A stretch of DNA of 63,936 nt, the filler included, from Polymyxa betae A26-41 (lineage: Eukaryota; Protista; Endomyxa: Phytomyxea): the NCBI GenBank assembly GCA_003693705.1. It is 5 parts of 5 records of this genome, joined end to end, with 100 filler letters (N's around TTAATTAATTAA, not from the genome) between each part and the next. Parts side by side here need not be neighbours in the genome. Positions count along the whole stretch, not along the records: positions 1 to 30,094 come from RBZT01000992.1; 4 more parts are not named here. One strand, given 5' to 3'. The notes under the pieces were generated by a model. That model was not told the origin of the DNA, did not search any database, and worked only from the letters and a program-made list of their open reading frames with translations. Below are positions 590 to 38,800 of this stretch, piece after piece (the first letter of the stretch is position 1; each line of letters opens with the position of its first letter). The translations under genes were made by a program, and so were the position numbers.

Positions 590-1134
590 GCTTTGATGTA
601 TTGGCGAGCTTCATCTAGACCTGAAATCATTGTGACTGATATGGCATCATATTTTATGTCTCAAGTCATGAAAGATTTAAGCCAGTGGTGTAACATGAAG
701 CATCATTTTACAGTGCTTATGGTCGTTATAGTAATGGTTCCTTTGAGGTAATCAATAAGCATTATCTAGCCCTAATCCGAGCTCTAATTTCTGAGTTACA
801 TTGGAAAAGAGTGACTGGTCTTGGCTCAATAAGAATATAGATCATACCTTGAATCATCGCACGCAGTCTAGACTGCGTGGGAAGGCTCCAGTGACAATTG
901 CTACTGGTCAACGTCCGGATATTCCCTTAGACTAAATATTTGGAGAGGTTAAGGATGGTTCACTGAATTATTTTAAAGTCCCGTTAGAGAAGTAACACAG
1001 GAAGTGGAAAAGTTACTAGATTCACTAGCAAAGATGCATAAAGGAATAGTACTTATCTCAGAGGATGTACGTCGGAAAAACGTATCGATCCGATCTCGAA
1101 TTAAAAAAGAACCTAATTTTACTATTGGGGATTA
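590..1134 (+). pseudogene. Degenerate Gypsy integrase core fragment
   Basis: Frameshifted translation PEIIVTDMASYFMS...HHFTV.YGRYSNGSFEVINKHYLALIRALISEL...EPNFTIGDY resembles the integrase at 30546-31540. It stops at the pogo TIR. Confidence 0.7.
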
Positions 1135-1318
1135 CCGTAATTCTTGCCGAAATAACCCCTACTAATGTGCAGAGCGCGGCCTTTTTTCTGTATGAAGGGG
1201 GTTATTTGGGCAAGAAATAAATTCTTTATTTGCATAAATTCGTCTGAAAACAGCGCCAAAAAACGGCGCGGGCTACGACGATTCGAACCATGTGCGGATT
1301 GCATATCATCATTGTACC

Positions 1319-2619
1319 ATGGGCCGCAATATCTGTCGTTTTACAATTGGAGAGAAAATAGCCATTGTCAATGAAGCATTTGAACGGCCTGGGGCGCTGT
1401 ATCAAACAGGAAAGAAATATGGCGTCGACTGGCGAAATATCAAGAGATGGAGGAAGCTGCTGGACATCAGCGATGACATCGACCGTCGGGCCAGAATGCA
1501 CCGGCCGCTGTCTTCCATTCAAGCCATCGTAGAGGGCCAAGATGTTTGGGATCATCATCGAGATTTTATTGATCAAATACGGCTGCGAGACCATGCTGTC
1601 ACTGGATCGATGCTTTTTCATGAAGTTCGTCGGTAATGGCTTTTTGTTTTCACGATTATTAGGATAGTATTATAAGAATAAATTCATTTTAGCTATAGAT
1701 TCCAGCCATCTTTTTGTGTCGGCAATGATTGGGCTCTGAGGCAACGAATTTATCGGTTTGTCGAGAGAGAAGGGTTTGTACAGAGGCGTGCAACCCATGT
1801 CTCCCAGAACACGCGACACGAAGCTACCATCATTGACGACTTCGTTGCTGCTGTCAATGATCATATCACAATGATGGCAATTCCACCAGAGTTCGTGGTC
1901 AATATCGACGAAACAGACCTTCAGTTTGATCTTCCGGCCAAAAAAACTTTGTCTCGTCGTGGTCGGCGAACCATTGCTGTGACCGGAAACGGCTCCTCCG
2001 GGCGTGCCACCGCTCTGCTGGGGGTCACGTTAACGGGCGAGAAGCTTCCGGTTTTCCTCGTCTTCAAGGGAATAAGCAAGGGAAAAAACCATCGTGAGGT
2101 GGTCGGTGACTTCATCAGTCGCGGATACCCTGGAGGCATTGTCATGACTGTGCAGAAGAACGCTTGGATGGATGTAGAAATCATGCACGAGTGGATTAAA
2201 CGGGTTTGGCAACCTTGGATTCTGGCTCGACTAGCTCGTGCCTCCTACCTGTTGCTTGACAGCCTTTCGGCTCATCTGGAATCCACCGTAATCGACAAGC
2301 TTGCCGAACTTGGGACCGAAGTATATGCAAAAATGTACATTTCGTTACCTTGACATTGTTTTCAGGCCGAAGTCATTGTGGCTGGTTATACCTCCAAGCT
2401 GCAGGTACTTGATCTAGGTATTAACCGACCGTTTAAATTCCACTTTCAACAGAAGCATACCGAGTTTCTTATCAATCGGACAGCGCCGAATGAGAAACCT
2501 CGTCGGCAGGACATCGCTCACTAGCTCACTGGGCGTTGCACGCCTGGAGCCAGGTATCGACTGCCGCAATTGTTAACACATGGAACCATGTGGGAATTAA
2601 GGCTGCCTCACAAGAGTGA
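1319..2619 (+). CDS. pogo transposase (HTH + DDE_1), two introns, C-terminal frameshift
   Basis: N-terminal HTH (FTIGEKIAIV...KYGVDWRNIKRWRK), NIDET, GEKLPVFLVFKG, QKNAWMD, and LLLDS..35 aa..QVLD. GT-AG introns at about 1634-1708 and 2321-2365. A GCTCACT duplication near 2516-2530 shifts the last ~30 codons. Confidence 0.88.
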
Positions 2620-2628
2620 CAGTGTTTT

Positions 2629-3060
2629 TTATTCTAATAAAGGAATAGCATCCAGGAGCACACACGACGCCATTCCACAATTTCGGGCATCTTTTCGACG
2701 TTTGTGGGAATTATCGGAAATGGAATATAATTCTACCACCTGAGCGAACTTCCCAACAAATCGCTCGCGAATAGGCATGCAGCTCTTGGGGAGGAATGCG
2801 ACACGACAAGATTCGTTACCGCTGATTACTGCATGGGCGGCCACTGCTTCTTCGATTAAACCATTCCCTAGTTAAGAGAATCGTGTAAACAGGGGTTAAT
2901 GTTTATAGAAAAAATTGGAACAGCTACTCTCAATGACTGTGAATTTGAACCGCAACAGCGTGCCGACACCGACTACCACCCCACAGGCCTCATGCAGCTC
3001 ACACGAGCGCCCATTCTCAGGCTTTCGAAGGCCAACGATCTCAGCGTTGGCTTGCGACAT
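2629..3060 (-). CDS. Transposon-borne ~123-aa HIRAN-like protein (2 exons)
   Basis: Splicing the GT-AG intron 2927-2868 joins two ORFs into MSQANAEIVGLRKPENGRSCELHEACG...ESCRVAFLPKS...FAQVVELYS...RNCGMASCVLLDAIPLLE. It lies inside the pogo TIRs, tail-to-tail with the transposase. The HIRAN call is inference. Confidence 0.72.
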
Positions 3061-3363
3061 TTTTCCTCTCTTTGCACCGACGATAGAGATGCTGAAATTC
3101 CGTAACGAGCGCAATAAAAATGTGCACCATTGGGGGCTATTTGGGCAAAGGGGTTATTCCTGCAAGAATTACGGTACTACGCCGACGTTGTATTAGAACG
3201 AGTACGTTACTACCGGTACTTAGATCAGGCTCTATGTTCAAGGGATTATGCTGTTATGAACAAAAATATAAGGCATATGCCTTATAACAAGCACTCAATA
3301 TCATTATTATTTGTAGTTGCATTTACTAGAAGTAATACAGTATATATAACAATCAAAGATGAA

Positions 3364-6300
3364 TTAAGATTTGGACATATGATCGAGGTCATCAGTAGAT
3401 TTATCTATAGAACTGACCTGCTCTTGTGTAGACAGCTTCTTCTCGTAAGTAACAATCCACTGTATGCCAAACAATCAGTTCTCTCAACACAACTGAAATA
3501 AACTGAGCGAGTATCACCTGTTTCAATCTGGTATTCTCTTCTTGGATTCGCTGCAGTTCAGACGAGGTGTTTTCGTCTTTGGCACGTTCAGCAGCAAGAA
3601 GCGATTCAAACTCCTCAATTCGCTTTATCAAGCCATCATTTTCATTCAATTGTGATCGTATTTTCGCTTCGAGCTATATACTGATTAATAGTGCAAGAGA
3701 ATAAGCAAAAGCAGTGATGCCATGCCTCCTCAATCCGATTCTGTAATTGATTTTTTGAGCTTTGATCCATTAACAGTCGTCGCTGCAAACTTTCACGATC
3801 AGACTGCAAATCGACCGATAATGATCTTGATGTATTTAAGGTGCCCATTAGCGATGATTTCTCATCAGTGATGGCAGTTAATTGTTCTGGGAACGGATAA
3901 ATCAAAGAAAGAAGGAAGCAGAACACAATAGAACCTTGTAATGTAGCAAGAGATCGTGTTAATCGCTCATTAGTACGTTGGTATTGTTCAATATCCAGAT
4001 TGAGACGTCCATTGATATCATTGAGCTCTTTAGATTTAGATTCTGCTATTAAAAAACGTTGTGTCAAACGCTGAATTTCGAAAAGCTGTGCTTGACACTT
4101 GGATTCCAACTAGAGTACAAGTTAATTACAATAGTGTATATCTAGATATAAAATACCTCAGAGGCAGTATCTAACAGTTTCTTATTCTCACTAACAAGCA
4201 TCTTATAATTAGTAAGAAGTTCTTCTTTCTCACTATAACGCATCACTAATGCATCAATATCAATGAAATATTACTGACAGTTTCTGTACACGTAATAATT
4301 CTTCCAAGTAGAGACATTTATTGACCGCACCGAATGCTTCTTGAGATTTGGCTTCCTTCTCTTGTAATGCCAACTGAAACTCTCCATTCACGAATTGATT
4401 CTATGAATGACCAGAAATTAAAAGAGACGTTAAGCAGACAAAGTGTTACCTCGCTGGTCATATTCCTTAAATCTTCACTTAAGGTGTGAATCTCAGAATT
4501 TTTTAGCTGAATCTACAGAAAGTTTGAATGAAATAATGGATCACACTGGAAACTCACTTGAGCTTCGAGTGATTGTTCATTCTGTTGTAACTGCTCAATA
4601 ATATCATTCTGCTCTCTGAGATTTTCCAATGTTCTTGAATGTTGTACAGACAGCTGATCAAAACGTTCTTGTAGCTGATTTGCAGCACGTTGAGCAGTTA
4701 GTACGGCTTCATCATCATGTTTAAGATGTTCCTGAGCTTGAACAAGCTGCTCACATTTCTCATCAAGTAAATGACACAGACGATCACGTTCTGTATCCAG
4801 ATTCTATAATAATCTCAGTCAATTGTCAGAACCAAAAAAGTAAAAGTTTAGCGTTATCCCAATCAGAGAAACCTGTAAACGACATAGATCGTGAGAGATT
4901 GACTTGAAGTGATGGAAATGTTGACAAATAGATTAAGATGCAGTACTGAAACATGTAAAGTGAAATAAAGAGATGACCATCTAACCTGTGTAACATGCTT
5001 CAACGACTCCAACTGATTATTTAACTCTGTTAATTGCATTTCACATTGAGCAATATGTTGATCTCGTTGAGTAACATCATCATGAGCTGTCTGAGTACAT
5101 AAATTAGATATTCGGCATGATTATATAGGGCTTTGATACCTGCAGTACAGTACGAAGACGTGATACTTCTGTAGATTCGTTGGTCTTCACATTCTCTAAC
5201 TGTGCTACCAACGATTGAAATTGATCAACTTCACCTCGAAGTTTGGAAATTGTCCCTAAAATGAATGGATAAAATTTTAACAGAGAGAATATGTTTTATG
5301 TCAGATAAAGAGCACAAGAGAAGCAGTAAATTCAAAGAACTTATTCTGACCTCTCTGCTGTTCAATAGTGTGTTGTAATGTAGCGATCTGTTTGTTCATC
5401 CTTGTAAGATCCTGTTTAGATAGATCAAGTTGATTTTGTAGCTCAGCGTTGCGTGTTGTAGATTGTGATAATAGACGACGTTCATTTTGTAAATCGCGAA
5501 GTAAATTATCACGTGACGACTATCAAAGCAATTATTTAAGTAAATTAAAATTAATCTCAAATCAATCTTACTTGTAGATCACTCAGATCAGCACGGGCAC
5601 TTTTCAAGACAGCCTCATTATTGCGGGCGGCGTCTTCCAATTGACGAACAACGGCAACCAAAGAGGCATTGTCCGATTTCAGTTGTGACAGCAGCTGTAA
5701 ATAATTTAGAGCTTTGACGAGCAATACAATATGGTAGTTTGAGAGAAAATATTACAAAAATGAAAAGAACAATAATATATTTGGAAAAGCTAGATATCAA
5801 CCATCAAAGCAATATATTATAGATACGTATAATATTTGCAAATGACATGCCAACAATTAGATAAATCTGATTTTTTTGCAAATGAATAAACTTGACCTGT
5901 TGCTCTTGATGGCGACGACTTTGAAAGTCAGATTGAGAATGTTCACGGACGTTTAATTCGGCCAGCAGCTAAATCGTTATTATGGGGGAAGATTCACACC
6001 CGATTCATGTACAAGGTACCTGAGAATTTCGAAATTGTAGATCATCGCGCTCACGAATCAGGTTTTGAACCTAAATAACAATGAATGTTTAGTGTCAACA
6101 AGTAAGTATATATTCACCTGAAGCTGAATAGAGATGGAATGAGCATCGAACTCTCTTAAGACCATCTGAAATGAGTTAGATCGATGCAATTTTAGACAGC
6201 CGATGTTTTTAAAATTCGATTGCAGTTATTCATCAACCAAAACCAGAACTTTAAAATGTTACACAGGTGATAAAAGGCCCAAACATGGTGAAAAGAGCGA

Positions 6301-30210: not shown

Positions 30211-33200
30211 TGTTGAGAGAGTGACAAAGAACTCTAGCTGTATTATTAGAAAGGAGAAGCGGTTGCGGTGTCCGCAGAGAGATTGGGGGGAAACCTCATA
30301 TATCAGTAGCAGAATAAACAAATAAAAAGTAAAAATAAAAACTTCGCGTCACATTGCTCTCTTCATTTGAGTTAGACCGAGTCAGAACAGGAGCGGGAAG
30401 GAATATGAAGATGGCATAGATCCAGGGTTGCCAAGTTGGGACAGCATGAACACAATCATCATGAACAGGAAAGAACACTTCAGGAACAGAACAGGAGAAA
30501 ACGAATAGTAGGATTTAAGTATCGGACAGGACACAATCGATGAGGTTAGACGTCGAGCAGAGAGAGTAACTCAGGGGGACAGAATTCTGCATGCCGGAGA
30601 CGGCGCTTGATGAAGACGGGACAGTCCTTCAGAAGTTGCGAAAGCGGCTCCCAGGTATTCTCTGCAGATTCAAAGCCAGACCACGAGATGAAAATTTCCC
30701 AATCATTAATTTGGGAATTGAAACGAACATTTAAAATATCCTCAATCTCAAAGCCATAACCATCATGACCAAATTGTTTTAAAATCTCCTCAGTAACATT
30801 TAATTGAAAATCAGAATAAAGACGAAGACGAGAACAATGACAATCAAAAAGTCTCTCAGACAATAAATCTCGAACAGTGAAAACATAATCAGATTTGACG
30901 GAAACGATTTGAAAAGGTCCAGACCAACGAACTTGTAACTTATTTCGATTAACTTTCAATGCATTCGAAACCAAAACATAGTCACCGATAGAAAAGTTAG
31001 GCAGGACTGCCTTACGACGTCGATTAGCAGCAGTTTGTCGCGACGACCGAGATTCATCAACATCTTTATGCCATTGAAGAAGCGACGCTTGCAAGTCAGA
31101 TACAAGCTCTTGTAATTGAAGAGGCGTCAACGGTACAGGAACAACACCTTTCGTTCGAGGATTGTAGACGCCATTAAGCGGAGAGGAAGGAGGTAGACCC
31201 ATAAACAGGGTAACAGCAGCAGGTCGATCAGGGGGAGTAGAATGGTTCAAAGCAATACGGATCAGAGGAACAAGAATATGCCAATCAACCAAGTCAAGGC
31301 GAAATTCAGAAATTAAAGAGCGAAATACATGCAAAATATGACGATTAATGACTTCAATAGTGCCATTAGACTAAGGACAGTAAGCAAGAGTGAAATGATG
31401 ATTAATGTGCAATTATAAACATAATTCTTCAATAAGAGAGTTTAGAAAGTGAGAACCACGATCAGAAACAAAGATAGAAGGGATGCCATATCCGGTGATC
31501 CAATCAATCAAACATTCAGCGGCAAAAGACGCAATAGGATTTAAGCAAGGAAATAATCAACAAAAGATGATAAATCGTCACGAACAACGAAAAGGTATTT
31601 AAATTGCTTCTTACGAGATAGATCTATTTGTAGATAATCGAAGTGAAGCACTGAGTTGCGAACAACAGCATGGGTAGCCGGGCCAAAGGGACGTGGAACA
31701 ACTTCTCCTCCTCGATTTACAGTGCAGTGCAGACACTGTTTACAAAAAGAGGATACATGTTCGGCAAGTCCACTCCAGTAAAAGCGATCCTGATTAGAAG
31801 ATAAAGTAGCTTTGATGCCTCGATGTCCAGAAATACCACAATGTGAAACCACCAAAATGCGAAACTTTAATTCGAAAGCATCAGGAGAATGAAAACAGTA
31901 CGAGATTGAGTTAAATAAACCTCATTTTCAACAGTAAAATCGGAACGAAGATGATCATTAATAGAAAAATAATTAGACTGAATGGAAGAAATTTCAGATA
32001 AGCTAGGCCAAACGAAATCAGTTTGTTGTAAAGGTTGAACTATAGCATTTGTAACAAGACGAGAACCAAAAACAGTTAAGAAAACACGAGAAGCAGAATG
32101 AGAATCCGAAAATCCCCAACTTGAGCAATTATCGGCCCAAACATTGTCCTCGCCCGAAATAGATTCAATGCAGTAATTTACCGTCCAGATTGAGACGCCA
32201 GCGATGGACTTTGTCCAGAGAATGTCGGTTAAGGAATGCAGATACACTTTCAGGATTATAAATAAATACTAAAGTTCGATGATCAGTAAAAATACGAAAC
32301 GGATGTTTACCGGTACAAAGAAGATAATCAAAGCGACGAACAGCATACTGAATGGGATAGGCTTCTTTCTCTGGGACAGACCAGTTTGAAAAAGGACCTT
32401 TAAAAGCGCCAGAACAGAAAGCAAGCGGCTGATGCGACTGCTCTTTAAATGGTAGATGTAAATCCTGAACAGGAACTCGAGTTATCACGATCATCCAAAA
32501 TCCTTACTAGCATCCGTAGAGGAATGGGACCAGATCTTCAGACAGCAACGCATATAGGTCCTAGCAACAGAAGACGTAATACGAGAATTGGCTAAAATAG
32601 GAACTATACCAGGTAATTGTTTTAAAATCAAAGGAGTAACTTTGACAGGAGGATCAGAACATAGAGAAAAACGAAATATATCAATAAATTCCAACAATAA
32701 AGAGCGAAGATCAGAAATTAAAGATTCAGGGGCGTTGCAGCGAATGCATTCTTGAATGCGTTCTTCCAACGCTGTACAGATATCATCTAAAGCATTAGAG
32801 CTTAGAGAAGGAGCATTTTCAGAAACATGATCAACAAAGTTTTCAGAATTAGAAATAACATTAAAATCGGAAGCTTTGCCAACTAAAAGACAAATTTGGG
32901 ATTCAACATCAGCGCCTAGACGATGCACGAACTGACGTCCAAGCAAAGCTTCAGACATGGTAATGTCAGCAATATATATTTGGTGACGACGAACAGTAAC
33001 ATTCCCAGCTTCAGTAGGAAGCGTAACATCAAATAAAGCAAATCGTGAACAGGTAGCTAAATCATCATTAGCAACACGAAACTCTAAAGGAATTTGAGAA
33101 ATTGCAAAAGGTTCAAATTTTCCAAGATTGTTAAAACCCATTATTGAGAAATCAGCCCCATCGTCAACTGAGACAGGAACCGTAGAGGAAAGGTTACCAA

Positions 33201-34045: not shown

Positions 34046-35635
34046 AGCAGCAAATTGTTTGATATCCAGCAAGACGCAACCGTGATCGAGATTGCCGATA
34101 ATAATAATATGTACTCTGAAGCAAAAGGAAAAATCGAACTAGCTGGACAAGTTTTGGAAACCTTATACGTACCTGTACTAGGAAAAACAAATCTGCTATC
34201 AACGATATCTGCTGTGAATGGTGGGAAATCCATGATTTTCATAGAAACGGACTGCAAACTAAAGGATAAGAATGGAAAAACCCTGATTCTAGGATATGTC
34301 GAAGGAAAAATCTACGTTATCGATGGTGAACAAAGTCTAAAGAAAGAGAATTCGCTCAAGTCGAATTCCACAGTCAGCGATCTCGAAGCACTTCATCGAC
34401 GTCTTGGTCATAGAAATTTTGGCGACATAAAAAGCTTGTGAATACTAAAGCTGTTCAATTGACAGGCAGCTGTCCCCTTAAGAATGAGAATCCCTTCTGC
34501 GCATCCTGTGTCAAAGGAAAAATGAAAAAGACACCTTCTCGCCCGAAGAGGAAATCAAGAACTAGACCACTGAATGAACTATGGCATTTTGACGAATGCG
34601 GTCCATTACCTGTCGAATCCTTTGGTGGAGCAAAATACTTCATTACGTTCACTGAGGATTATTCTAGGCTCAAAGGCACGTATCTTTTGAGACACAAGAA
34701 CGAAGCATTCCTAAAGTTCAAGACATTGCATACATGTGCTGAAAAATGGGTCGAGAGCAAAATCAAAGTTTTAAGAGATGACAGCGTCAAGGAGCTCCTA
34801 AGTGCAGAATTCCAGCACTATCTACAGGAAAATGGAATTAAGTGGGAGTCGACAGTACCGGGTTGTTCCGAGCAGAATGGTGTAGCTGAAAGAGGTCATC
34901 GGACGCTGATTGACATGGCTAGAACCATGCTTATCCAAGCCAAGCTATCAAAGCATTTCTGGGGTGCTGCAATCCTGACAGCCACACATTTGTTAAACCT
35001 CTGCCCTCATCCACATCAACCAGCAACTCCATACGGATTGTTCTACCGGACAACAGCAGATATCAGCTATCTTCGCGAGTTTGGGTGTGACGCATATGCT
35101 CATATTCCTGAAAACAAGAGATCTAAACTTTGCCCTCGAGCGAAAAGGTACATACTGATCGGGTATTCTGACCATCAGAAGGGATACAGGCTCTTTGATC
35201 CAGAAACCCACCAAGTTACAATTCATCGTGACGTTTTCTTTCGTGAGGGAAGTTATGGAGACAGGACCGAGCTGGGTGCCCAGCTCGATGATGACGAAGA
35301 TGCAAATAAAGGAGAACGAGATTGGAGTCTGGATGATTGTGACAATATCGATGATGATGAATTGGACCGCGACGAAGAAAATGAAGAAAATGATAACGTC
35401 GACGATTGTGACAGCAGCAGAGACGATGAAGAAACTATCAGTCAACGAATCGAAAGTGATAATGAAAATGTAGACGATGGGCATTCAATAGATAGCACTG
35501 ACAAATAAAAAAGACCCCAAAGAGCAAGAAGGCAACGAGACGTTTACGGTAATATGGTACCTAGTGAATGGGTGAAAATCGCTACGCGTTCAGAACCTGC
35601 AGCGTTTGACGAAGCAGTTACTGGCACTGACTCCA
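34046..35635 (+). mobile_element. Copia retrotransposon fragment (end of protease region, integrase)
   Basis: LHRRLGH, CASCVKGK, HFDECGP, EQNGVAER and CDAYAHIPENKRSKL...GYSDHQKGYRLFD, then an acidic linker and EPAAFDEA. It is cut by the LTR at 35636. Confidence 0.92.
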
Positions 35636-35913: not shown

Positions 35914-38800
35914 TTCTCCCACCCTTAAAACCGGTTTTATCGATAGCCTGGACCTGGCTTTCCAGGGTTCTCAATGTGGAATTTCTCGATCATCCCCTTA
36001 ATCAATAAATCCCTTATCAACTCAGATGCAGGCTCCCATGAATTGTCCTCAGGGCCATATCCTTCCCAGTTTACCAGATACTGAAGACGTCCCCTGCGTA
36101 ACCGTGAATCCAAAATGCTCGAAACAATGTAGTAGGGATCTTGTCATCCTCTAGATAGATCGGAGCAGGAGGGTGATGGGCACCTACAGGAATTTTTCTC
36201 TCAAAAACGGTGATAAAAGTGATGAGTGAAAGACTGGATGAATCTTCATGTGCGAGGGGAGCTCTAGTTCGAAAGCGTTATTGTTAATTTGGCGCTTAAT
36301 TTTGAATCGGCCGAGTCTGCAATAGTCCAACTTCTTACAGTGTCGAGTTGTTTTGATGTTACGAGAACTTAACCAAACCTTCTGGCCCAGTTGGAAAGGA
36401 GCTTCTCTAAGCGATTGATCTGCATACTTCTTGTAGCTCTCTTTGGCTTTTGCGATTTCCTGTTTTAACATTTCATGAATTTCCTTCAAATTGGCAATAA
36501 ATGACTCCGCTTTTGAAACGATTGAAACTGAAGGTTCTTCCAGGCTGAATCTAGGATGAAAGCCAAAATTGGCAAAGAAAGAAGATGTTTTAATCGAAGC
36601 TTGCCACGCATTGTTATACGCAAATTCAGCAAGAGGTAAGTAGTCATACCAGTCATTCTGACGATAATTGACAAAACAACGTAAATACTGTTCTAGGGTT
36701 TGGTTAGTCCTTTCGGTTTGACCATCGGATTCGGGGTGAAAAGCCGTTGAAGGTGAACGATGATTATTAAGGAGCGTTGCCAAAACTTTGAAGTAAACTG
36801 TGAACCCCGATCCGAGACAAAATCATCAGGCAGTCCGTGTGATCGAAACACAAATGCAATAAAGGCCTTTGCAGTGCTTAATGCATCGGGAATCGAAGGA
36901 AACGGTATAAAGTGGGCCATTTTTGTAAGGCGACAAACCACAACGATGACGCATGTCATACCAGAAGAGCGCGGGAGGTCTGTAATAAAATCGACCGAAA
37001 TCCCAGACCATGGCCTCTCAGGTGTAGATAAAGGCATAGGGTCCCGTACGGAAGTTGGCGTACCTTTTTTGAGCGACAGCATACCGAGCAAGAGGACACA
37101 TAACCCTGGATGAAATTCCTCATACCAGGCCACCAATAATATCTCTTTAAAAGTTCATAGGTTTTGGTTTGACCGTAATGTCCTCCCGTTAACGAGTCAT
37201 GATGTTGCTTTAGAGCTTCCAAGCGTAAAGGTCCGCTAGGAATATAAATCTTGTCAACATAGAATAAGAGGTCAGCGGAAGCTCTGAAATATGGGCTCCC
37301 CTGTTGCGACGTCAGATTTGCAAACATTTTGGCAGCAAAACTATCCATTTCAGTAGCAGCCCCAATTCGATCGACGAACGGTAGAGTAGTAGTTGCGAAA
37401 GAAAGTAACCGGAAGTTCTCTGGTTTAAAGATAGTCTCGGGTTCCGGTGAATCTAAAGGTTGATAGTCGGACCTTCTGCTCAAAGCATCAGCCTTTCCGC
37501 TCTTAACGCCAGGACGGTAATTTATAACGAAATTGAATCGACTAAAGAATTGGGCCCACATAACTTGGCGCTACGAGAGCGATTTCATAGTTTGGAATTC
37601 CTTTAACGACTGATGATCGGTTAAAACAATACCGGGAGATAACAGCCTTCCAATAGATGCCTCCACTGCTCAAATCCAGTCTTTATAGCTAGAAGCTTCT
37701 TATCTCGCGTGTTGTAATGCTTTTCGGCCGTAGCAAAAGCTTGGGAATCAAATCCAACCGGATGTAATGTATGATCAGAATTTTTTGTGATAATACCACG
37801 CCCAAGGCAAATCCGGAAGCATCTGTTTCAAGGAAATATTGCTTCATTGGATCGGGATGAGATAATACCGGTGCAGAGGAAAACTTTTCCTTTAAACAGT
37901 CAAATGCACTCTGCTGGAAGGGGACCCAAGAAACTTGGCATTCTTGCGTAAGAGATTAGTAAGGGGAGAAACAATACACGAAAAGCGATCGATGAATCGG
38001 CGGTAAAAATTCGCAAAACCCAAAAACCGCTGTAGATCTTTGAGGCTTTTTGGAGGAGGCCAGCTTCAAATACTTTCGACTTTGGAAGAGATCATTGATA
38101 TACCATTCAGAGAAACCCTGTATCCGACAAATTCAATACACTTTTGGTCAAACTCACATTTACTTAGGTTGCAGTAAAGACCATTCTCTCTGAGCCTTTG
38201 CAATACAATTCTTACATGCGTTTGGTGTTCATGTTCGGACCGTGAAAATATTAGACTATCATCAAGATAGACGACAACAAACTGATCCAAAATGTCACGG
38301 AATATATCATTCAAAAAATGCTGGAATGTAGCTGGGGCGTTGGATTGGCCAAAGGGCATTACCAGATATTCGTAGAAACCATATCGTGCACGAAAGGCGG
38401 TCTTCCATTCATCCCCCTTTCTGATTCGGATAAGATTAAATGCCGACTTTAGATCTAATTTCGTAAACTTAACCGAACCGGATAATCATCGATCAGAGGC
38501 AATGGAGAGCGGTTGCGGACCGTCATCATATTTAGTCTTCGATAACCTATACATGGCCGAAGTGATCCGTCTGTTTTCTTCTCAAATAATAGCGGAGATC
38601 CCTTTGGAGACCGAGAATGCCTAATGAAACCTTTCCTGAGAAAGTCATCTAGATAATCACGTAAACATTGGAGCTCTGGCTTTGATAGGGAATGTATTGG
38701 ACCAAAATATGTTGGAGCTCCAGGTAACAGGTCAATCCTATAACCATAGGGCGATGAGGAGGGAGTTTACTTGCTTCTTTAAGATCGGTTATTTCTTCAT
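35636..38800 (-). mobile_element. Tf2/Ty3-like Gypsy chromovirus (RT-RNaseH-IN-chromodomain), decayed
   Basis: [61 protein letters not shown] and chromodomain [18 protein letters not shown]. Many frameshifts. Confidence 0.93.

Follow-up and report, generated by a model that had tools for sequence, protein, structure and literature searches.

A pogo-Superfamily Transposon of Polymyxa betae With a Convergent Second Gene That May Encode a HIRAN-Like Partner Protein

Introduction

Can a pogo transposon carry, between its terminal inverted repeats (TIRs), a second gene whose product serves the movement of the element? The question is raised by a stretch of 63,936 nucleotides from the phytomyxean Polymyxa betae A26-41 (GenBank assembly GCA_003693705.1), composed of five parts of five records joined end to end and referred to here, at its full length, as the window, in which positions 1133–3176 hold a pogo-superfamily element with a transposase gene and, converging on it, a smaller gene for a protein that we call the partner. 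The textbook example of a transposon that needs just its own transposase is the Tc1/mariner or pogo element, and it is for this reason that such elements serve as gene-transfer tools. The presence of a conserved second gene, if true, would mean that some lineages depend on a dedicated DNA-end factor, and would bear on the protection of excised ends, the repair of the donor break and the choice of target, as well as on the origin of the cellular HIRAN proteins HLTF and Rad5 or their exchange with mobile elements. The partner has just 123 residues and natural copies of the element without the transposase break described below exist in related organisms, which makes the idea directly testable.

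The reading that we prefer, and in which our confidence is evenly balanced, is that this pogo transposon encodes a HIRAN-like partner with a likely zinc site, which is probably an accessory factor that holds single-stranded 3′ DNA ends. We set out below the element and its copies, the two genes, the protein family of the partner and its predicted fold, and then weigh this reading against its rivals.

Results and Discussion

The Element and Its Copies

Window positions 1133–3176 are a pogo-superfamily (DDE_1, DD35D) cut-and-paste transposon with a convergent second gene. The element is 2,040 bp long, with TA on either side and 26-nt TIRs. Contigs from 7 of 18 sequencing runs of related organisms were compared with it, among them run X1 (organism A), and the boundaries are as follows:

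1133–1134, no strand: TA target-site duplication, left, read from the sequence; X1 contigs with other flanks start matching exactly at 1133
1135–1160, + strand: left TIR, 26 nt, with 24 of 26 bases in agreement with the right TIR
3149–3174, − strand: right TIR, which contains the fourth copy of a 16-nt end motif (3150–3165)
3175–3176, no strand: TA target-site duplication, right, read from the sequence; three X1 contigs cease to match just past 3176

The initial annotation of this locus, made from the sequence alone, had described complete TIRs and TA duplications around the element; these are confirmed, and all of its coordinates are correct within 2 bases. Extended to include the TA, the TIRs form a 28-nt arm with 93% complementarity. 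A 25-nt TIR pattern has two sites in the 63,936 bases, which are the two ends of the element (0 expected from 100 shuffles), and the window holds no further copy of the element besides that at 1133–3176. The 16-nt end motif is similarly confined, with all four of its matches in the window lying within the element ends (shuffle mean 0.01):

1144–1159, − strand: copy 1, within the left TIR
1198–1213, + strand: copy 2, subterminal on the left, inverted with respect to copy 1; the pair was also found as an inverted repeat
3133–3148, + strand: copy 3, subterminal on the right, in the same orientation as copy 4
3150–3165, + strand: copy 4, within the right TIR

With an outer and an inner copy at each end of the element, the motif probably marks the binding sites of the transposase.

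Other insertions are evident in run X1, from which 87 contigs align to positions 1000–3300, with 39 at ≥99% identity, 29 at 95–99%, 15 at 90–95% and 4 below 90%. Two of these contigs start at 1133 and three end at 3176, and the letters outside these edges are mutually unlike; the contigs with unlike flanks are other insertions that share the same element ends. The pogo transposon moves as one unit holding both genes. A one-off capture of the second gene, which the initial annotation had named as the outcome that would speak against its proposal, is not what we find within this organism group, given the further insertions with the same ends and the large protein family described below. At the right junction, each of the four organism-B runs has a contig that passes across 3176 into the right flank as it stands in the window, with no differences, and portions of the element are without contig cover in these runs.

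This copy of the element seems to lie within another repeat or next to one. The left flank (1004–1134) is itself repeated, with up to eight X1 contigs covering it, and contigs of X1 and X6 leave the left flank behind 1134 into one shared, unlike sequence that is absent from the window. We considered this loose end as an empty site and rejected it, since its letters occur nowhere in the window and the left flank is repeated.

The Transposase Gene

The transposase is encoded on the + strand in three exons:

1319–1632, + strand: exon 1, putative N-terminal DNA-binding part; open reading frame (ORF) with ATG at 1319, whose end is fixed by a GT (1633) and the continuity of the frame
1633–1692, + strand: intron 1, 60 nt, GT..AG, placed from the frame alone
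1693–2320, + strand: exon 2, DDE_1 core with the first two catalytic Asp residues, placed by the Pfam DDE_1 match
2321–2365, + strand: intron 2, 45 nt, GT..AG; in a 413-nt contig of X3, a run of unrecorded type, 2320 is followed directly by 2366
2366–2619, + strand: exon 3, third catalytic Asp and C-terminus, interrupted by 8 extra bases within 2516–2531

The product of exon 2 matches Pfam DDE_1 (PF03184) at E = 4.6e-12 (46.3 bits, cut-off 22), and its closest named relative, at 34% identity, is a Phytophthora infestans protein called 'DDE superfamily endonuclease'. Exon 3 continues the DDE_1 profile weakly (E = 0.14). Pogo transposases have a helix-turn-helix DNA-binding domain at the N-terminus (CENP-B_N, HTH_psq, BrkDBD and others), and for exon 1 there is a weak, sub-threshold match to BrkDBD (E = 0.033, 14.5 bits, cut-off 23.4). 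Across the join of 2320 to 2366, 35 residues separate the second and third catalytic Asp, as counted by hand on the spliced translation, with the catalytic residues assigned from motif position rather than from structure. The DDE_1 match and this count bear out the assignment to pogo DD35D made in the initial annotation. Longer relatives of the transposase were limited to two.

The two introns can be compared with contigs from the related organisms. Intron 1 is crossed unspliced by one X10 contig, and at position 1692 all four X1 contigs that cover it have T instead of G, which abolishes the acceptor AG used for this intron; an alternative acceptor AG at 1697–1698 is in frame and would give two codons fewer. 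An X8 contig extends into intron 2.

The late frameshift that had been noted in the transposase is real. The heptamer GCTCACT occurs twice in 2516–2531, and the 8 extra bases bring a TAG into frame at 2522–2524, so that the transposase of this copy is defective; without them the frame would reach a TGA at 2617–2619, through ORF 2494–2619 of the +1 frame. The 8 bases at 2516 are absent from one X1 contig and one X10 contig, and present in an X4 contig as in the window. Copies without this break in the transposase therefore exist in related organisms.

The Partner Gene

Downstream of the transposase gene, on the − strand, lies an unbroken partner gene of 123 codons in two exons, which starts with an ATG at 3060:

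2928–3060, − strand: exon 1, with a C-x2-H-x2-C cluster; aligns with the N-terminal half of relatives that have no interruption
2868–2927, − strand: intron in phase 1, 60 nt with GT..AG ends, for which the only support is homology
2629–2867, − strand: exon 2, an ORF with the stop codon TAA at 2631–2629; 77% and 73% identical to relatives P0001 and P0002
2620–2628, no strand: spacer of 9 bases between the convergent stop codons, read from the sequence

The spliced 123-residue product aligns without a gap over the exon join with P0011 (49% identity over 116 residues) and P0013 (43% over 121 residues), and its residues 1–123 align without a gap on residues 1–123 of P0036. The intron model is adopted because the spliced product aligns in this way, end to end, with relatives that are not spliced, and the same alignments uphold the earlier description of an intact, spliced second gene.

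The spacer agrees with the 9 bp between stop codons reported in the initial annotation. With the stop codons so close, any 3′ untranslated regions of the two transcripts must overlap. The word AATAAA is present on both strands at the gene junction, at 2636–2641 (+) and at 2633–2628 (−), the latter overlapping the stop codon of the partner.

A Large Family of Proteins Related to the Partner

The partner belongs, by sequence similarity, to a large unnamed eukaryotic family. A profile built from the exon-2 product, P0001 and P0002 matched 440 cluster representatives at E ≤ 1e-3 in a search of 1.84 billion proteins, and 87 of these representatives at E ≤ 1e-10. Many members of the family are complete proteins of 120–135 residues on contigs of 570–2,300 nt, in which the exon-2 match fills the C-terminal two thirds. 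P0001, P0002, P0011 and P0018 lie on contigs of 1.7–2.3 kb, about the size of the element, which is suggestive only.

To describe conservation we use an alignment (A2) of 42 of the 150 representatives listed, selected for a length of 116–159 residues and a match that extends to the C-terminus; P0070, which is among them, has an unrelated N-terminus. The partner protein of the window matches the A2 profile over residues 3–121 of 123 (157 bits, E = 7e-51) and retains the conserved residue in 31 of the 34 columns with ≥70% conservation, including C20, H23, C26, G27, G61, C65 and G109. The C-x2-H-x2-C cluster pointed out in the initial annotation is invariant or nearly invariant throughout the family, as are the Gly directly after it, a fourth Cys and more Gly residues; the corresponding Cys and His residues of the window protein are C20, H23, C26 and C65.

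Of the 20 relatives that were looked up, Spongospora subterranea accounts for two and the chytrid Blyttiomyces sp. for one (KAJ3314640.1); the rest are environmental sequences on contigs of 570–2,630 nt. The Spongospora and Blyttiomyces relatives appear in proteomes as ordinary hypothetical proteins; one of the two Spongospora proteins is labelled 'HIRAN domain-containing protein' in UniRef, a name that P0013 bears. Longer or fused forms of the partner were limited to two proteins (290 and 345 residues), neither with Pfam domains. PHROGs gave nothing meaningful among the 42 relatives, the ESM Atlas yielded no usable match, and searches of metagenome, genome and viral contig collections, for which the exon-2 product, P0002 and alignments A1 and A3 served as queries and patterns were matched, confirmed no locus for the relatives.

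Predicted Fold of the Partner Family

An AlphaFold2 model of the relative P0011, made with the 42-row alignment A2, is confident (mean predicted local distance difference test score 89.5, predicted template-modelling score 0.81). Compared by VIA-align with 48,161 representative solved chains, this model has three matches at Z ≥ 5, all of which are HIRAN domains; the tool itself warns that a Z below 8 may reflect merely a common arrangement, and this applies to all three:

lp_0118 (3k2y): Z 6.7, 91 aligned, root-mean-square deviation 3.7
HIRAN of HLTF (4xzg): Z 6.2, 86 aligned, root-mean-square deviation 4.3
Rad5 of K. lactis (6l8o), residues 179–290: Z 5.0

The fourth chain in this search has Z 4.7 and the chain at rank 50 has Z 2.6. 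The structural match to HIRAN spans residues 10–129 of the model. When VIA-align was applied to the top 1,000 entries from Foldseek, the first five were again all HIRAN (Z 6.2–6.6, 81–89 aligned, root-mean-square deviation 2.7–4.7) and the next had Z 3.5. In the Foldseek comparison with the PDB, high-probability rows (0.75–0.97) were confined to HLTF HIRAN entries and lp_0118. A HIRAN-like fold for the partner family is thus a prediction with moderate support.

Several results weigh against that assignment. The model is that of a relative with 49% identity and not of the window's own protein; Foldseek gave nothing in the PDB at E ≤ 0.001, and its HIRAN rows have template-modelling scores of just 0.39–0.46. 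Neither exon of the partner matches any Pfam family at E ≤ 1, and among the 42 relatives the only match to the Pfam HIRAN family (PF08797) is sub-threshold (E = 0.12, 12.7 bits, cut-off 24.7). When all sequences of the PDB were searched with a profile, none matched at E ≤ 10. Judged by sequence, then, the partner is not a member of Pfam HIRAN. The description of the partner as HIRAN-like in the initial annotation stands in part: the predicted fold of the 49%-identical relative (Z 6.7, 6.2 and 5.0) speaks for it, and membership of Pfam HIRAN by sequence does not follow. The Cys/His/Cys/Cys set, to our knowledge, is not part of HIRAN.

A Possible Role for the Partner and Its Alternatives

Excision of Tc1/mariner-type elements leaves the element and the donor flanks alike with short 3′ overhangs that have a free 3′-OH, and the HIRAN domain of HLTF binds free single-stranded 3′ ends. 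In the reading that we prefer, Cys20, His23, Cys26 and Cys65 would hold a structural zinc, and the partner would bind free single-stranded 3′ DNA ends as the HLTF domain does. Since excision leaves 3′ overhangs, the partner could then cap the 3′ ends on the excised element and on the donor flanks; the capped ends might be kept for strand transfer and integration, or the repair of the donor break might be steered. The broken copy at 1133–3176 may be mobilised in trans by intact copies. The end-binding helper step, taken alone, is a tentative proposal that we hold at somewhat below even confidence.

The transposon Tn7 encodes its own target selector, TnsE, whose recognition target is the recessed 3′ end at a replication fork. 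A bolder version of our proposal would make the partner an indispensable second subunit in a class of eukaryotic pogo/mariner elements that is widespread and undescribed, acting as a 3′-end sensor that guards the ends or aims integration at replication forks and so as a eukaryotic counterpart of TnsE; this is possible and we regard it as doubtful. The resemblance to TnsE in this targeting version is that a transposon-borne protein is proposed to read 3′ DNA ends, whereas TnsE is bacterial, is apparently unrelated in sequence and fold, and is part of a five-protein system.

The contigs from the related organisms supply further points against the two-gene reading. Among the contigs of the runs compared, none joins 2928 to 2867; an X3 contig (2685–3120) and an X10 contig (2755–2989) cross the whole partner intron unspliced, and an X4 contig (2882–3068) starts inside it. 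None of the 18 runs is listed as RNA. As the run types are not on record, these unspliced contigs neither confirm nor exclude splicing of the partner gene. One X1 contig is without positions 2676–2822, 147 bases of the partner gene, so some copies manage without an intact partner gene.

The convergent arrangement itself would suit a different role, in which the partner is a regulator that, as a protein inhibitor or through antisense overlap, dampens transposition and keeps the copy number tolerable. Stop codons 9 bases apart entail overlapping 3′ untranslated regions, AATAAA words lie at the junction on both strands, and the partner is intact where the transposase is broken, so that its product, if made, is independent of a working transposase in cis. 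However, a HIRAN-like DNA-binding fold is unlike the transposition inhibitors that we know of, and an antisense role alone leaves unexplained a conserved, full protein with invariant Cys and His residues; we consider regulation an unlikely function. Less favoured still is the suggestion that a cellular HIRAN-like gene was captured once and kept by chance, or for a benefit to the host or to itself, with no role in transposition. Such a hitch-hiker would be consistent with the appearance of relatives as ordinary hypothetical proteins in the Spongospora subterranea and Blyttiomyces sp. proteomes, with the scans of contig collections that yielded no locus for the relatives, and with the X1 copy that has lost 147 bases of the gene. 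The position of the gene inside the TIRs of a multi-copy element, with other insertions that have the same ends, argues the other way, as do, suggestively only, the element-sized contigs of four relatives, and we judge this explanation to be rather improbable.

That the second frame is a chance ORF opposite the region downstream of the transposase would agree with two of the results above, namely that no spliced contig was seen among those compared and that neither exon has a Pfam match. Such an ORF would not be expected to have 440 related representatives, a gapless alignment over its exon join, 157 bits to a family profile with all invariant residues kept, and a family with a confident, compact predicted fold; this explanation is very remote.

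Comparison With Known Systems

The element fits the pogo superfamily in its TA, TIRs, DDE_1 transposase and DD35D spacing, and departs from the usual one-gene layout in the second, intact, convergent gene at 2629–3060. As described in portions of two surveys (PMC7386202; PMC7325037), pogo elements share with it the DDE_1 domain, the DD35D motif, the TA duplication, short TIRs, a length of ~2 kb and a presence in stramenopile-type genomes; unlike it, the surveyed elements, again in those portions, have the transposase between the TIRs and no conserved second gene. The DD35D spacing marks the Passer and Fot/Fot-like pogo elements in the corresponding section of PMC7386202. In those portions of the literature that were searched, including PMC7325037, PMC7386202, PMC1636448 and PMC3417536, supplements aside, we found no description of a conserved second gene, HIRAN-like or other, in pogo elements; the tables of elements in PMC7386202 may include such elements uncommented. 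The 'proteins' of Lemi1 were considered as a precedent for a second gene and rejected, as the account of Lemi1, in the part available, makes them products of a single split transposase ORF. The ciliate TBE/Tec elements, in a portion of PMC7325037, are Tc1/mariner-related elements with extra genes and three ORFs; unlike the partner, their extra ORFs encode a zinc-finger protein, a recombinase and a product of unknown kind, and the elements are DD34E (same source).

Among HIRAN proteins (PF08797; HLTF, Rad5 and lp_0118; PDB 4xzg, 4s0n, 6kcs, 6l8o and 3k2y) are the sole structural matches of the partner family at Z ≥ 5, and the bacterial lp_0118 resembles the partner in being small and standalone. 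Unlike these proteins, the partner family is without a significant sequence match, has the conserved Cys/His/Cys/Cys set and is transposon-borne.

In PIF/Harbinger elements a second, Myb-like DNA-binding protein is required for transposition. The element described here shares with them a eukaryotic two-gene cut-and-paste design, in which a DDE transposase is accompanied by a small protein that binds DNA (in the case of the partner, as predicted). It differs in transposase superfamily, in the fold of the second protein and in the target duplication, and the requirement for the second protein, established for PIF/Harbinger, would be an extrapolation for the partner. We propose that the partner functions in the manner of this Myb-like protein or of TnsE; it is related to neither.

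Surrounding Sequence

An ORF on the − strand at 3404–3673, 230 bases beyond the right end of the element, is directed toward it. Its product is Glu/Leu-rich and coiled-coil-like, with a match to SSXT that is sub-threshold only, and the stretch between this ORF and the right TIR is covered in all four organism-B runs. Farther along, a 223-codon ORF at 47513–48181 (+) is equal in length to the transposase exon-2 frame and unrelated to it, with no tblastn match and no Pfam family.

The window as a whole is repeat-rich and includes fragments of long terminal repeat (LTR) retrotransposons:

30549–31370, − strand: chromodomain ORF, LTR retrotransposon fragment
34414–35505, + strand: integrase core and SH3-like domain, LTR retrotransposon fragment
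36187–36822, − strand: Tf2-type SH3 domain, LTR retrotransposon fragment
42322–43119, + strand: RNase H and integrase zinc domain, LTR retrotransposon fragment
60710–61342, − strand: Pol beta-barrel domain, LTR retrotransposon fragment

Between 30001 and 36000, a region of ~6 kb that coincides with retrotransposon fragments, the AT skew is strong (0.17–0.27) and the GC skew positive, unlike the remaining window.

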